From: Escherichia coli
GTDB taxonomy: Bacteria; Pseudomonadota; Gammaproteobacteria; Enterobacterales; Enterobacteriaceae
NCBI RefSeq assembly: GCF_003019035.1
Contig: NZ_CP027447.1
DNA: 64,000 bases
Reading direction: 5' to 3' (one strand)
Both the position numbers and the translations under genes were made by a program. Position 1 is the first letter of the stretch. The number at the start of each line of letters is the position of its first letter. Shown piece after piece: positions 30,439 through 39,910 of this stretch. The notes under the pieces are model-generated. The model was given only the letters and a program-made list of their open reading frames with translations, did not search any database and was not told where the DNA came from.

Positions 30439-30816
30439 TCAGCCTGTAAATTTACTTGGTTTGGGTTGAGTATAGAATCGCCCAACCTCAAGAAATGAGC
30501 GTCGTTGTTCCGGAGTCATTTCATCAAATGCGTCCATTAATTTTTGTTTTTCTGGTGACATTTTTGGGACAACATTGGTCATTACATCCCCTCTCTGTCC
30601 TGTAACAACGTAAAGCACGTCAAGCCCTAAAGTAGCCCAAATTGCCAAAGCATCTGCTCCGGGAGCGGATTCATCCTTTTCCCACCGCAATTGGCTTTTA
30701 TAGGATGCCCCCACCAATTCAGCAAACTCAGACTGACTAAATCCTAGGCGGTTTCGTTCTTCTTTTAATCGTGAGCCAAGTGACATTTTTGTCCAATACC
30801 TATTTACATGTCCCAT
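30439..30816 (-). CDS. Phage repressor, XRE-family HTH
   Basis: 125 aa with HTH LGFSQSEFAELVGASYKSQLRWEKDE; divergent from the early operon. Confidence 0.7.
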   Translation of the reverse strand: MGHVNRYWTKMSLGSRLKEERNRLGFSQSEFAELVGASYKSQLRWEKDESAPGADALAIWATLGLDVLYVVTGQRGDVMTNVVPKMSPEKQKLMDAFDEMTPEQRRSFLEVGRFYTQPKPSKFTG

Positions 30817-30878
30817 TTTTGGGATAATAATCTAACATATATAGAGCAAACATCATTGCGTTAATAAAGGAGGCAACA

Positions 30879-35611: not shown

Positions 35612-36142
35612 ATGGCAAAAAGTACAAAAGGGGCAAAACGTATCAAGTCCGCAGCGGCACTCTGGGTACCAGGGACACGCGAAGAGGTCATTGAGGGCAT
35701 CAGACTGCTCGGTGACGCACAACGTGAACTGGTCAGGGCTGAAACAGAAATGAATGACGCCATTGGCGATATCACCGCACGTTATGCCCCGCTCACCGAG
35801 AGCCTGAAAAAACGCATGGCCGAACTGCAGTCCGGTATTCAGACATGGTGTGAGGCACACCGTGATGAACTGACCGGCAACGGGAAGGTGAAGTTCGCTA
35901 ACCTCACCACCGGCGAGGTGCAGTGGCGAAACCGTCCGCCATCAGTCAGTATCCGTGGAGCGGATAATGTTATTGAACTACTGAGACGTCTGGGGCTTGA
36001 GCGCTTTATTCGTGTAAAAGAGGAAATAAATAAAGATGCCATTCTGAATGAAAAAGAGGCCGTGAAAAATATTCCCGGTATTACCATAAAAAGTGATATT
36101 GAGGATTTTTCAATAATTCCTTTTGAGCAGGATGTGCAGTAA
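35612..36142 (+). CDS. Gam-like host-nuclease inhibitor / DNA-end binding protein
   Basis: 176 aa, size and sequence character of Mu Gam; RBS GGAGA. Confidence 0.6.
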   Translation: MAKSTKGAKRIKSAAALWVPGTREEVIEGIRLLGDAQRELVRAETEMNDAIGDITARYAPLTESLKKRMAELQSGIQTWCEAHRDELTGNGKVKFANLTTGEVQWRNRPPSVSIRGADNVIELLRRLGLERFIRVKEEINKDAILNEKEAVKNIPGITIKSDIEDFSIIPFEQDVQ

Positions 36143-36239: not shown

Positions 36240-36434
36240 ATGATATTTAAATGTATTCAGTGCGAGAGGGATATAACAGCCCTGCGTTTTCACAGCGCCA
36301 TCGCCGTGATGTCCGGTAAATACCACATCCCTGCGGTACGCGTCACCCTGGTCTGCCCGTACTGCAGCCAGCATTTTTCGGCGGACGTGCCCGTCATGGA
36401 ATTCTCCCGCCCTGACAGGGAGGACGCGCAATGA
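36240..36434 (+). CDS. Small zinc-ribbon protein
   Basis: 64 aa with CIQC...CPYC; RBS GAGGAG. Confidence 0.45.
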   Translation: MIFKCIQCERDITALRFHSAIAVMSGKYHIPAVRVTLVCPYCSQHFSADVPVMEFSRPDREDAQ

Positions 36435-36703
36435 TTACCCCACAGGAAGCACGACAGCGCACCCGAACCCTTGTTGAACACTATGTCAACGAGTGTGAAT
36501 GCCGCGACCTCACCGATGTGAAGCACGTCCTGACGGCGCTAATCAGCATGGCCGCTCAGGCCATTGTGGCGACCAACGGAAAGGCGGCTGCCCTGCAGGT
36601 ACTGGTGAACACACTCACCCACACGGCAGAGCATGAGGTGCCGTACCGGATGGAAACCACTGCAGAAGGCGGCCTGCACATCACCGTCAGCCGGAAGCAC
36701 TGA
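36431..36703 (+). CDS. Hypothetical early protein
   Basis: 90 aa; ATGA overlap with the upstream gene. Confidence 0.4.
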   Translation: MITPQEARQRTRTLVEHYVNECECRDLTDVKHVLTALISMAAQAIVATNGKAAALQVLVNTLTHTAEHEVPYRMETTAEGGLHITVSRKH

Positions 36704-36712
36704 GGGCGCGGC

Positions 36713-37009
36713 ATGACACGAAACACCGAACTCACCCGCACCGCCCTCTACCGTCTGGCCCTGCACCGTTTCGGGCCGGACGCACAGGCCCTGAAACTGA
36801 CAGAAGAGGCCGCTGAACTGGCGGCCAGTGCTGCCCGCAATCTGAACGGACAGGGCAACGAAAGTGACCTCGCGGCAGAGCTGGCAGACGTGGAAATCAT
36901 GACAGAGCAATTGCGCCTTCAGGGGATGGACCGGCTGATTGACTTCCACAAACAGAAAAAACTGGAACGTCTGGCTGCACGACTGGGCGTGATTTACACG
37001 AACGAGTAA
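36713..37009 (+). CDS. MazG-like nucleotide pyrophosphohydrolase domain protein
   Basis: 98 aa with EExxE and ExxD motifs (LTEEAAELAA...ELADVEIM) typical of all-alpha MazG/HisE-type NTP pyrophosphatases. Confidence 0.5.
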   Translation: MTRNTELTRTALYRLALHRFGPDAQALKLTEEAAELAASAARNLNGQGNESDLAAELADVEIMTEQLRLQGMDRLIDFHKQKKLERLAARLGVIYTNE

Positions 37010-37023
37010 CCGGGAGGCATTCA

Positions 37024-37239
37024 ATGGCTGACATACTCAGGGAAATCACCGCATGGATACTGATTCTTACTGGCCTGGCGACATGCCTCAGTGCGGGGGC
37101 AGCCCTGGCTGCCCTGCTGATGCACATAACAACACAGTGGTTATGGGAAAAGCTTAAAGCAGCATACAGCCTGAAAGAGCTGTCCGACGCTGTCCGGGCA
37201 TGGAAACGGCAGAAAAATACCGGAGATACAGAACAATGA
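37024..37239 (+). CDS. Small membrane protein
   Basis: 71 aa with one hydrophobic helix; RBS GGGAGG. Confidence 0.4.
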   Translation: MADILREITAWILILTGLATCLSAGAALAALLMHITTQWLWEKLKAAYSLKELSDAVRAWKRQKNTGDTEQ

Positions 37240-37919
37240 CAGACCAGAATAAACACATTGAGAAACTGAAAAAGTTGCTGGCGCTGGCCGCATCCGGCAA
37301 CCCGCACGAGGCCGCTCTGGCACTGCGCCGAGCCCGTAAACTGATGGATGTTCACGGCATCACACATTCCGACATTGCTATGAGTGATATTGATGAAACC
37401 ATCAGTCATTACTGGCCGACAGGCAGTCTCCGTCCACCGCGCTACATGCTGGGCCTGATGAACATCATCCGCGAGGCATTTGGTGTTAACTCCATCATTC
37501 ACCCCGGCACGCATCCGTCTGTGGGGTTCTACGGTAACCGGGAACGAGCGGCACTGGCTGCGTACACCTGGGAAGTGCTGGTCCGCCAGCTGAAAAAGGC
37601 GCGTCAGCAGTATATCAGCGCACAGAACAAAAGAATAAAAAACGCCACCCGTACCAGCCGTGGAGACCAGTTTGCTGAAGGCTGGGTACTGGCCGTTATC
37701 AGTGAAATACAGTCCTTTGCCCTGACCGATGATGAGCGTGAACTGATGCAACAGTGGCTGGAACATAAATACCCGCAAACGCAAACCACCAGGGCGCGTA
37801 AACCGGGAAGAAGCCGCAATGGCGACGCCTCGCGCTATGCGGGGTTTCGTGAAGGGCAGAACGTCAGACTGCACCGCCCGGTCAGTGGGCAGGAACAACA
37901 GAAACTGGAGGCCAGATGA
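37236..37919 (+). CDS. Early protein with DUF2786-like N-terminal domain
   Basis: MTDQNKHIEKLKKLLALAASGNPHEAALALRRARKLM...; ATGA overlap with the upstream gene. Confidence 0.5.
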   Translation: MTDQNKHIEKLKKLLALAASGNPHEAALALRRARKLMDVHGITHSDIAMSDIDETISHYWPTGSLRPPRYMLGLMNIIREAFGVNSIIHPGTHPSVGFYGNRERAALAAYTWEVLVRQLKKARQQYISAQNKRIKNATRTSRGDQFAEGWVLAVISEIQSFALTDDERELMQQWLEHKYPQTQTTRARKPGRSRNGDASRYAGFREGQNVRLHRPVSGQEQQKLEAR

Positions 37920-38146: not shown

Positions 38147-38351
38147 ATCTGTTGTATGTGCCCTGTTCTGGTATTGTTTTGTCGGTTGGTGTACTGCTGA
38201 ACTGCACCGCCGTTCAGGGTTTTATTCACGTTACAGTGGTGCCGGCTACTGGATTAGCTGGTCGGTGATGTTCCTGTGCTGGCCTGTGGCGCTTCCTTTA
38301 TATGTCGGTTATATCGGTGGCGCAGGTAAAAGGAGCAACGATGATGACTAA
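38136..38351 (+). CDS. Small membrane protein
   Basis: 71 aa from the ATG at 38136 after a G-rich RBS; two hydrophobic helices. Confidence 0.4.
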   Translation: MTAESVVCALFWYCFVGWCTAELHRRSGFYSRYSGAGYWISWSVMFLCWPVALPLYVGYIGGAGKRSNDDD

Positions 38352-38793
38352 ACAACGTCTTATCCAGCTCATTCATATTGCCCGTAATGAACTGGGTATG
38401 GATGAAGACACCTACCGCCAGATGTTACAGGGGCTGACCGGTAAAGCCTCAACCAAAGGAATGGATACCACACAACTAAACTGCGTGCTGGAATCCATGA
38501 AAAGGAAAGGCTTTCGCGTTAAGCCTGCCGGAAAAGCCAGCTCCGGTTTACCGCTGGATAACCATCCGCAGTCCAGGAAAATCCGTGCGCTATGGCTTGA
38601 AATGGCTGCTGCCGGCATTGTTCGTGACCGTTCAGAAAATGCATTAGCGCGGTGGATCAAGCGGGAAACGGGCATCAGCGCCCTGCGCTGGCTCAATACT
38701 GAACAGGCAAGCAGTGTTATTGAGAAACTGAAGAAGTGGCAGCACAGAGCTGCGGGAGTAAAACATGAGCGACCTGAATCAGTTTCGAAGTAA
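38341..38793 (+). CDS. GemA/gp16-like protein
   Basis: MMTKQRLIQLIHIARNELGMDEDTYRQMLQGLTGKAS... matches the GemA family pattern. Confidence 0.6.
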   Translation: MMTKQRLIQLIHIARNELGMDEDTYRQMLQGLTGKASTKGMDTTQLNCVLESMKRKGFRVKPAGKASSGLPLDNHPQSRKIRALWLEMAAAGIVRDRSENALARWIKRETGISALRWLNTEQASSVIEKLKKWQHRAAGVKHERPESVSK

Positions 38794-39163
38794 AGGGCCG
38801 GAACTCCTGGTGGAGCTGGCACAGCATACCTCTGAGACCGTTCGCGAGATTATTGATATTGAGCCCGCAATTGCCGACCAGATTGGTCAGGCCGTCGCGA
38901 ACCGAATGATGCAGGTCTGGGGCGGGCAAAACGTTTATTTCCCGATGGGCATGGTATGGAAGGTCAGTCAGCGCGACCGGGAAATCTTCAGGGAGTTTAA
39001 CGGACGCAACCACCACGAACTGGCCCGCAAGTTTGGTGTTTCGCTTCAGTGGGTCTACAGCGTGGTTAAGCGGGTCAGAAAAGAAGAACTGGATCGGATG
39101 CAGGGCAGGTTGTTTGATGAAGATCTGCCAGAGGAGACGAAAGACGTTAACAAATCCAGATAA
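38765..39163 (+). CDS. Mor/C-family transcription activator
   Basis: C-terminal GGQNVYFPMG...RDREIFREFNGRNHHELARKFGVSLQWVYSVVKR matches the Mor/C pattern (GGxxVYIPxG...FNGRN..EL...YGV...VY). Confidence 0.7.
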   Translation: MSDLNQFRSKGPELLVELAQHTSETVREIIDIEPAIADQIGQAVANRMMQVWGGQNVYFPMGMVWKVSQRDREIFREFNGRNHHELARKFGVSLQWVYSVVKRVRKEELDRMQGRLFDEDLPEETKDVNKSR

Positions 39164-39205
39164 TTCCTGCTTGTTAAAGTCCTTTCAAAAATCTCCTTAT
39201 TGTAT

Positions 39206-39240
39206 AAAAGCACGGTAGACCCCTTACCGTGCTTTTTTTA
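39206..39240 (+). terminator. Rho-independent terminator after the Mor-like gene
   Basis: GCACGGTA-gacccct-TACCGTGC followed by a run of seven T. Confidence 0.7.
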
Positions 39241-39277
39241 TGCTCTCTCTTTAGTATTCAGGATGCAGGGAGAAAAT

Positions 39278-39910
39278 ATGTTTGACGTTTCGTTGTTAAA
39301 TCTGCCATGGGCAACACTGGTGACCCTGACCAGTGGCTATATTGGGTATTTTATTGCGAATGTGGGACTGAAGGATCACCACAAGCCCATTGAGGTGACT
39401 TTTTCTTCGCTGATTTTTGGCCTGACAGCAATGATGGCTTACCAGGCTGTTATGTGGGCAGGTCTGAATGCCTGGCTGGCAACACCACCAGCACTTCTGT
39501 GTGCCGTTACATGCGGTGCGTGGTGGCGCAGGTACGGTCGCAAATGGATGTACAGATTACTGTGGAATAATGATATTTCATGGTCTGACGATACCAGCTC
39601 AGCATGGCAGGCAATGTTTGATCAAACAGGCTTCAGCGTTACCGAGGTCAGAGTGATTCTTCGCGATGGTTCCGGTATGATGTCACGGCTGCCAGGGAAC
39701 TTTGAAGAGTGGCCTAACGGTCCGTTTACCCTGGGGAATAAAGGCGATATGGTTCTTTACGTCACGCACAGCAGCCCTTCAGGCAGTAACGAATGGGAAG
39801 AGTATAAAGGCGTGGTTGATAAGTACTGGGGAGCTCTGGCAACCTATATTCCAGCAGATCAGATTGCCAGAGTGGAGATCAGGCGCGTTCGTGCAACGAA
39901 CGATGAATGA
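39278..39910 (+). CDS. Hypothetical membrane protein (3 predicted TM helices plus soluble C-terminal domain), terminal accessory gene
   Basis: 210 aa from the ATG at 39278 with RBS AGGGAG; follows a terminator; last gene before the prophage end. Confidence 0.55.
   Translation: MFDVSLLNLPWATLVTLTSGYIGYFIANVGLKDHHKPIEVTFSSLIFGLTAMMAYQAVMWAGLNAWLATPPALLCAVTCGAWWRRYGRKWMYRLLWNNDISWSDDTSSAWQAMFDQTGFSVTEVRVILRDGSGMMSRLPGNFEEWPNGPFTLGNKGDMVLYVTHSSPSGSNEWEEYKGVVDKYWGALATYIPADQIARVEIRRVRATNDE

Follow-up and report, generated by a model that had tools for sequence, protein, structure and literature searches.

What does a 98-residue protein encoded among the early genes of an Escherichia coli prophage do, and how much can be read from the acidic pattern, EExxE...ExxD, that it carries? 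The gene lies in a 64,000-nucleotide stretch of E. coli DNA (the window). An initial annotation had assigned its product to the all-alpha MazG/HisE fold of NTP pyrophosphatases, and had proposed that such an enzyme, expressed from an early operon, could counter nucleotide-based host defences or the stringent response.

The gene and its place in a transposable prophage

The reading frame proved to be exactly as first described, with both its coordinates and its motif residues confirmed (Table 1): in the protein, Leu-Thr precedes E31-E32-A-A-E35, 20 residues follow, and the second half of the pattern reads E56-L-A-D59-V-E61. The ATG lies only 9 nt past the stop of the preceding ORF, with a GAGGG Shine–Dalgarno-like site 6 nt to its 5' side. 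No Rfam families, tRNAs, or notable repeats were found at or around the locus.

The prophage in the window is a BcepMu-like transposable element. The region shares 97% identity with Escherichia phage PhiKM, a phage placed in Bcepmuvirus, whose copy of the gene is annotated as 'hypothetical protein'. On the + strand, the genes run in the order DUF3102 protein, 593-aa transposase (A), MuB-like AAA ATPase (PF13401), Gam, 64-aa zinc-ribbon ORF, phrog_3691, the MazG-like ORF, 71-aa membrane ORF, DUF2786/DUF7168 protein, GemA, and Mor. The gene thus shares a strand with, and sits among, transposase A, the MuB-like ATPase, Gam, GemA, and Mor, and its placement in an early operon is borne out. 'Early operon' is a fair description of the arrangement, with co-transcription suggested by the gene order, a promoter-like site at the head of the early genes, and a terminator hairpin at their end; between these two elements (30803–30831 and 39206–39236), no comparably strong terminator-like hairpin was found on the + strand. 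The position is also conserved in a Dickeya prophage, where the homolog stands directly after gam and before gemA/mor, and the phrog_3958 and phrog_421 ORFs are both conserved in the prophage family.

Several observations concern the borders of this region. A 125-aa HTH repressor-like ORF (30439–30816, − strand) is divergent from the promoter-like site at 30803–30831 (+ strand), and the region 30439–30831 as a whole resembles a Mu c/Pe-type switch region. At the right prophage end, past the mor terminator, lies a 236-aa multi-pass membrane ORF (39200–39910, + strand), which may be a moron; the label given to its equivalent in PhiKM, 'Fe2+ ABC transporter permease protein 2', looks doubtful. 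In E. coli N61 (locus L009, 15557–16078), the end of the same prophage adjoins a cysteine hydrolase gene truncated at its N-terminus, a junction that is consistent with transpositional insertion into a host gene.

Table 1. Features of the early region, in window coordinates.
Feature	Coordinates	Strand	Basis or remark
Putative early promoter, TTTACA-17-AATAAT, at the head of the early genes	30803..30831	+	10/12 consensus match; function inferred
Gam, inhibitor of host nucleases; upstream marker of the semi-essential early region	35612..36142	+	PF07352, E=5.6e-41
Zinc-ribbon ORF, CxxC...CxxC, 64 aa, phrog_3401	36240-36434	+	Two genes upstream of the MazG-like ORF
Intergenic junction; upstream stop TGA (36701-36703) overlapping the GAGGG Shine–Dalgarno-like site	36698..36712	+	Sequence read
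98-aa single-domain all-alpha NTP pyrophosphohydrolase-like gene	36713..37009	+	ATG start; stop codon included
First putative metal-binding motif EExxE, codons E31-E32-A-A-E35	36803..36817	+	Aligns to EcMazG E171/E172/E175; 98–100% conserved in A2
Second putative metal-binding motif ExxD, codons E56-L-A-D59	36878..36889	+	Aligns to EcMazG E193/D196 and to EELGD of Bacillus MazG 5ie9
C-terminal-helix basic residues, codons K80-Q-K-K83-L-E-R86	36950..36970	+	Conserved; phosphate binding inferred
71-aa predicted membrane ORF, phrog_3958	37024-37239	+	Directly after the MazG-like gene
DUF2786/DUF7168 protein, phrog_421	37200-37919	+	Start overlapped 40 nt by ORF 37024-37239
GemA and Mor; downstream landmarks closing the early/middle region	38302..39163	+	PF06252, E=1.6e-40; PF08765, E=1.1e-43
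Terminator-like hairpin, 13-bp stem and T-run, immediately past mor; putative end of the early unit	39206..39236	+

The acidic motif is conserved across a large family

Taken alone, EExxE...ExxD is weak evidence. The bare pattern EE..E(12-28)E..D turns up in 0.35% of composition-preserving shuffles of the MazG-like protein, and among the window's 451 stop-to-stop segments that reach 60 aa or more, two contain it; besides the MazG-like protein, this is the unrelated Gam, which bears it by chance as EEVIEGIRLLGDAQRELVRAETEMND. Such a chance occurrence counsels caution over MazG-like calls based on the motif alone, and it is conservation within the family that raises the present call above chance.

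That conservation was assessed in a 78-sequence alignment and profile of diverse relatives of the MazG-like protein (A2). The motif survives careful alignment: E31 and D59 never vary, and 76–77 of the 78 sequences keep E32, E35, and E56. Around these residues lies a conserved signature specific to the family, consisting of A16, an aromatic residue at position 20 (F in the window protein, W in most relatives), G21, Q25, A58-D59-V-E61-I62-M63-x-E65-Q66, K80, K83, and R86-L87, with the basic residues retained in 69 (K80), 76 (K83), and 77 (R86) of the 78. An exhaustive profile search recovered 10,441 cluster representatives at E ≤ 1e-3 and 1,908 at E ≤ 1e-10, mostly of 85–110 aa, and close homologs occur in E. 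coli, Salmonella, Citrobacter, Enterobacter, Klebsiella, Proteus, Dickeya, Erwinia, and Yersinia. Within E. coli, DNA of the gene is present in 620 of 5,426 complete genomes (~11%, about one in nine), chromosomal in all of them and in up to three copies per genome. Comparison with the Dickeya ortholog, the only informative one for dN/dS (close pairs have too few substitutions), gave saturated synonymous sites and a dN of 0.26. The gene is under purifying selection, and it is real.

These results bear directly on the possibility that the motif is an accident in a spurious or non-functional ORF. The ease with which the bare pattern arises, in shuffles and in Gam, would fit such an accident, as would the long antisense ORFs that overlap the locus; against it stand thousands of homologs, purifying selection, conserved synteny, and a confident structure model that matches the expected fold (see below). 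We rejected this explanation on the number of homologs, the conserved acidic residues, the fold match, and the purifying selection, and regard its probability as negligible. The antisense ORFs themselves (161 aa at 36539–37024 and 333 aa at 36897–37898, both on the − strand) overlap the early genes, are without homology support, and are probably by-products of a G+C-rich coding strand.

Some family members are longer than the window protein. Three relatives from Klebsiella-type prophages (P0012, P0030, and P0031) have 169 aa, with an extra C-terminal segment of ~70 aa that carries a conserved LPxRELLEDWCGAVP. We considered whether homologs of 166–169 aa might be fusions with the downstream 71-aa membrane ORF, and rejected this, since the C-terminal extension, which is missing from the window protein, is unrelated to ORF 37024–37239. 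Homologs extended at the N-terminus are instead merged with the upstream zinc-ribbon ORF: in database entries P0026 and P0036, a zinc-ribbon homolog and the MazG-like ORF are joined as one protein, which reflects either a gene-calling or frameshift artefact or direct adjacency of the two genes in those relatives.

Probable assignment to the all-alpha NTP pyrophosphohydrolases

Against standard domain models, the protein stays under the cutoffs: it scores 13.1 bits (E=0.12) with Pfam MazG (PF03819; cutoff 22), 15.7 bits with Pfam PRA-PH (PF01503; cutoff 21.3), and 15.6 bits with NCBIfam TIGR03188 (HisE; cutoff 42.7), and no precomputed Pfam domain was present for any family member listed. Some of its relatives come closer, with 21 of the 78 A2 members matching Pfam MazG at E ≤ 0.01 (best 2.2e-5) and 5 matching PRA-PH. 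Among phage protein families, the window protein matches phrog_2245 over its full length (residues 1–97; E=7.9e-34, 118 bits); this family is labelled 'nucleoside triphosphate pyrophosphohydrolase', a functional label that is an annotation and not assay-based, and the remaining PHROG matches are likewise to NTP-PPase or MazG-like families.

Comparison of the A2 profile with solved structures gave matches that were all marginal, namely Bacillus MazG (5ie9) at E=0.009, iMazG (2q73/2q5z), YpjD (2gta), and SSO3215 (1vmg); in the 5ie9 alignment, TEEMGE and EELGD stand opposite the two acidic motifs. Searches of the PDB with the single sequence or a narrow profile had yielded noise or marginal matches, and were replaced by those with the broader profile. 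For comparison with E. coli MazG (EcMazG), we used a 35-sequence alignment of Pfam-positive MazG catalytic domains (A3), having discarded an hhalign comparison of the family with the single EcMazG sequence, which is meaningless with a template that lacks depth. Profile-profile alignment of A2 with A3 gave P=0.0011 over 43 columns, with an HH probability of 20%, and placed E31/E32/E35/E56/D59 on EcMazG E171/E172/E175/E193/D196. The active site of EcMazG consists of E171, E172, E175, E192, E193, and D196, with Mg2+ bound by E172, E193, and D196 (PMC10014863). The window protein therefore keeps all three Mg-ligand positions and five of the six acidic active-site residues; the equivalent of the sixth, E192, is Ala55, a position at which 58 of the 78 relatives have E.

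Structure prediction points in the same direction. The AlphaFold2 model built from A2 (pLDDT 94.7) is all-helical, with long helices as expected for a four-helix-bundle core, and matches the superfamily fold. It replaced a first model made from a shallow alignment, which had a pLDDT of 74 and was uninformative in Foldseek. No Foldseek match obtained with the AlphaFold2 models was significant on its own.

The assignment to the MazG/HisE all-alpha NTP pyrophosphatases consequently holds at the level of the superfamily, through the conserved residues that map onto the EcMazG site, the fold matches, and the PHROG assignment, and fails at the thresholds of the Pfam MazG and PRA-PH families; scores under those cutoffs make the protein a superfamily member, and not a member of the MazG family in the strict sense. 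Judged from sequence and predicted structure, it is very probably a divergent single-domain member of the all-alpha NTP-PPase superfamily with a predicted intact catalytic apparatus, and we have high confidence in the predicted class, an all-alpha (MazG/HisE/dimeric-dUTPase) NTP pyrophosphohydrolase.

Two other readings were weighed. One is that the protein is a HisE-type phosphoribosyl-ATP pyrophosphatase of histidine biosynthesis. Its PRA-PH and TIGR03188 scores are far under the cutoffs, more family members match MazG (21) than PRA-PH (5), and there are no his genes nearby, the surroundings being entirely phage; we consider this exceedingly unlikely. The other is that it has become a non-catalytic or moonlighting regulator that binds another protein or DNA. 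Staphylococcal phage dimeric all-alpha dUTPases derepress SaPI elements through binding, and the window protein is likewise a small helical protein, here amid many small regulators, that has lost the Glu192 equivalent (A55). Nevertheless, the metal-ligand positions, together with K83 and R86, are near-invariant in 78 sequences from unrelated phages, which points to retained catalysis and leaves a purely regulatory role very unlikely.

Comparison with characterized members of the superfamily

Among the closest known counterparts are the short single-domain all-alpha NTP-PPases, SSO3215 of Sulfolobus solfataricus (1vmg), iMazG of a Vibrio integron (2q5z/2q73), 5ie9, YpjD of B. subtilis (2gta), and AF1178 of A. 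fulgidus (4qgp), to which the window protein shows 20–27% identity with marginal profile E values of 0.009–0.45. Unlike these, the window family is phage-borne and has a signature of its own (A16, G21, Q25, A-D-V-E-I-M-x-E-Q, K-L-x-R-L). EcMazG (PF03819; 3cra/3crc) is a chromosomal protein of 263 aa with two tandem domains, encoded in the relA-mazEF operon, whereas the window protein has 98 aa and one domain, falls under the Pfam cutoff, has Ala in place of E192, and is linked to EcMazG by a family HMM score of only ~2 bits. HisE/PRA-PH enzymes (PF01503, TIGR03188; 1yvw, 6j22, 7bgm) differ in that the window protein is under the cutoffs and occurs in a phage setting without histidine context. 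The mammalian DCTPP1/RS21-C6 proteins (7mu5, 2oig, 2a3q) are eukaryotic and longer, with 20–24% identity and matches that are individually not significant.

Among phage proteins, cyanophage S-PM2 MazG and S-2L MazZ (7ody) are MazG-type enzymes with the dNTP pool as their target, as proposed here for the window protein; their links to it are not significant at the sequence level, and 7ody ranks 37th among the Foldseek matches. Cyanophage S-2L MazZ serves the synthesis of 2-aminoadenine DNA, whereas we know of no base substitution in a Mu-like phage, whose DNA is copied by the replisome of its host.

A proposed role in conditioning the nucleotide pool

From these comparisons we can sketch how the protein would work. 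It would be a small, single-domain, divalent-metal-dependent NTP pyrophosphohydrolase, which by analogy with its superfamily would catalyse the Mg2+-dependent reaction (d)NTP + H2O -> (d)NMP + PPi, and its gene would be transcribed together with those for transposition and replication, starting at the BcepMu-like prophage's early promoter, as the operon structure suggests. Each subunit is predicted to be a long helical hairpin, with two subunits probably forming the four-helix-bundle core and further assembly into a tetramer possible, as in other short members. Mg2+ would be bound by E32, E56, and D59, helped by E31 and E35, and the phosphates may be held by K80, K83, and R86 on the last helix. 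This last assignment is made by analogy with C. jejuni dUTPase, which acts on its substrate through the basic residues Lys175, Arg182, and Lys194 (PMC10014863). The conserved aromatic residue at position 20, Q25, and Q66 probably aid in positioning the substrate.

For such an enzyme, the most likely role during the lytic cycle would be to prepare the nucleotide pool for replication of the phage DNA: it could clear away non-canonical (d)NTPs (dUTP and oxidised or deaminated species), or else cut back certain canonical dNTPs. Genomic context favours this role. In all four contexts sampled, distant relatives (about 35–45% identity) lie in phage or prophage replication/recombination modules. In the first, the gene is flanked by DNA polymerase A, C5-methylase, and ThyX genes and, on the opposite flank, by those for VapE primase, an SNF2 helicase, and terminase. 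In the second, it follows genes for a helicase, VRR-NUC, a methylase, and a Mom-like product; in the third, PcfJ, ParB, and terminase genes are nearby; and in the fourth, a Clostridium prophage, it comes after those for RecT, an MBL hydrolase, and DnaB/DnaC-like loaders. It is this steady link with genes of replication and nucleotide metabolism that argues for a nucleotide-pool role, and the preference of cyanophage S-PM2 MazG for dGTP and dCTP (PMC6850273) fits the same reading. A counterpoint is that the E. coli host already has Dut and MazG, so that the need for a phage house-cleaner is not obvious. We therefore hold the pool-conditioning role only tentatively, as a possibility that falls just short of an even balance, whereas the explanation as a whole, enzyme class and pool role together, is one we consider moderately probable, a grading that is a compromise between the two parts.

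Two further features of these neighbourhoods may be recorded. In three of the four unrelated contexts (L003–L006, L012–L013, and L016), DNA (cytosine-5) methyltransferase genes are no more than a few kb away from the MazG-like gene, once accompanied by ThyX and once by a Mom-like gene. In the Clostridium formicaceticum prophage (L016, 956–1696), a gene beside RecT encodes a metallo-beta-lactamase-fold protein with a weak match to the Anti-Pycsar Apyc1 Pfam family, ~3 kb upstream of the distant MazG-like homolog.

Alarmones and defence-made nucleotides as alternative substrates

The proposal that the protein counters nucleotide-based defences or the stringent response takes its most concrete form in hydrolysis of (p)ppGpp or (p)ppApp early in infection, which would damp the stringent response and toxins such as MazF. 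One superfamily member sets a precedent: Atd1, a short MazG-like enzyme encoded by Pectobacterium phage PcCB7V, hydrolyses ppGpp with a Km of about 50 uM, is without activity on rNTPs or cGG, depletes (p)ppGpp, and blunts TIR-STING and retron-TIR toxicity and TIR-driven abortive infection (bioRxiv 10.1101/2022.06.09.495361). The window protein is similarly small, single-domain, and early-placed, and E. coli hosts carry relA-mazEF-mazG.

A direct comparison with Atd1 required that its gene be located in the phage genome (MW367417). A tblastn search with the EcMazG catalytic domain did not recover PcCB7V. The accession of Atd1 is absent from the paper and its supplements (bioRxiv 10.1101/2022.06.09.495361). 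The only MazG/HisE-type gene near the PcCB7V NTase, two genes away from it, encodes QQG33500.1 (86 aa, 'phosphoribosyl-ATP pyrophosphatase'), which by its position is the probable Atd1. It resembles the window protein in being short and phage-encoded, with the twin catalytic motifs of the superfamily, but it belongs to phrog_6408 and not phrog_2245, has a shorter motif spacing, and shows no detectable specific similarity: a BLASTP comparison with the window protein gave E=0.24, out of register, and the family HMM gave 1.9 bits. The settings also differ, the probable Atd1 gene lying beside an NTase in a virulent 146-kb myovirus, and the window gene in a Mu-like early operon without an NTase. 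Elsewhere in PcCB7V (L010, 39109–40854; L011, 40954–43686) are genes for PnuC, NMN adenylyltransferase, ribose-phosphate pyrophosphokinase, and nicotinamide phosphoribosyltransferase; together they make up a set for NAD salvage, which could work against defences that deplete NAD.

The surroundings of the window gene and the record of other phage enzymes also weigh against an alarmone substrate. No NTase or recognised anti-defence gene adjoins the MazG-like ORF (its neighbours are the zinc-ribbon ORF, phrog_3691, phrog_3958, and the DUF2786/DUF7168 protein), the PADLOC defence models gave no match, and relatives keep company with replication genes and not with anti-defence islands. Moreover, cyanophage MazG, long presumed to be a (p)ppGpp enzyme, neither binds nor hydrolyses (p)ppGpp (PMC6850273). 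The phage enzymes that have been tested thus disagree on (p)ppGpp, and superfamily membership cannot decide the substrate. Of the initial proposal, then, what stands is the single superfamily precedent, and what speaks against it is the lack of similarity to Atd1 and of any NTase or anti-defence neighbour; we judge an alarmone or anti-abortive-infection role unlikely, albeit well ahead of the other alternatives considered here. Cyclic oligonucleotides are chemically unlikely substrates, because the fold cleaves an alpha-beta phosphoanhydride bond that they do not contain.

A related alternative is that the enzyme detoxifies nucleotide analogues made by the host for defence, such as the ddhCTP made by prokaryotic viperins or the ITP/dITP made by RADAR-type deaminases. 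The general activity of the superfamily is house-cleaning of non-canonical NTPs (PMC10014863), and the presumed early expression would suit this role; our literature search found no published tests of such detoxification by MazG-type phage enzymes. The idea is purely inferential, without a hint from co-occurrence or experiment, and we rate it as quite improbable. More broadly, that the subfamily as a whole might be a general counter-defence enzyme destroying immune or stress nucleotides, whether (p)ppGpp and (p)ppApp or ddhCTP and ITP/dITP, seems to us an unlikely possibility, on a par with the alarmone role.

Annotation status and significance

Assignment of the protein as an NTP pyrophosphohydrolase is already public in PHROGs and RefSeq: RefSeq/PGAP now lists WP_000197788.1 as 'nucleoside triphosphate pyrophosphohydrolase family protein', in place of the 'hypothetical protein' of older records, and one JGI record labels a homolog 'NTP pyrophosphatase (non-canonical NTP hydrolase)'. 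Our literature search found no paper that characterises or assays the subfamily, nor any on a MazG-type gene in Mu-like phages.

If the enzyme class preferred here is right, the protein would be one more phage-borne nucleotide pyrophosphatase, in itself unsurprising, and the finding would be of use in mending 'hypothetical protein' labels in hundreds of E. coli genomes. The family is missed by Pfam, and a dedicated model would improve its annotation. With ~10,000 sequence clusters, the subfamily is a large one that, in the contexts sampled, appears tied to phage replication modules. Were the counter-defence reading true, the enzyme would shield early phage replication from abortive-infection pathways, and if its substrate were an alarmone or a defence-made nucleotide, the family would represent a common and unrecognised means by which temperate phages protect their replication.
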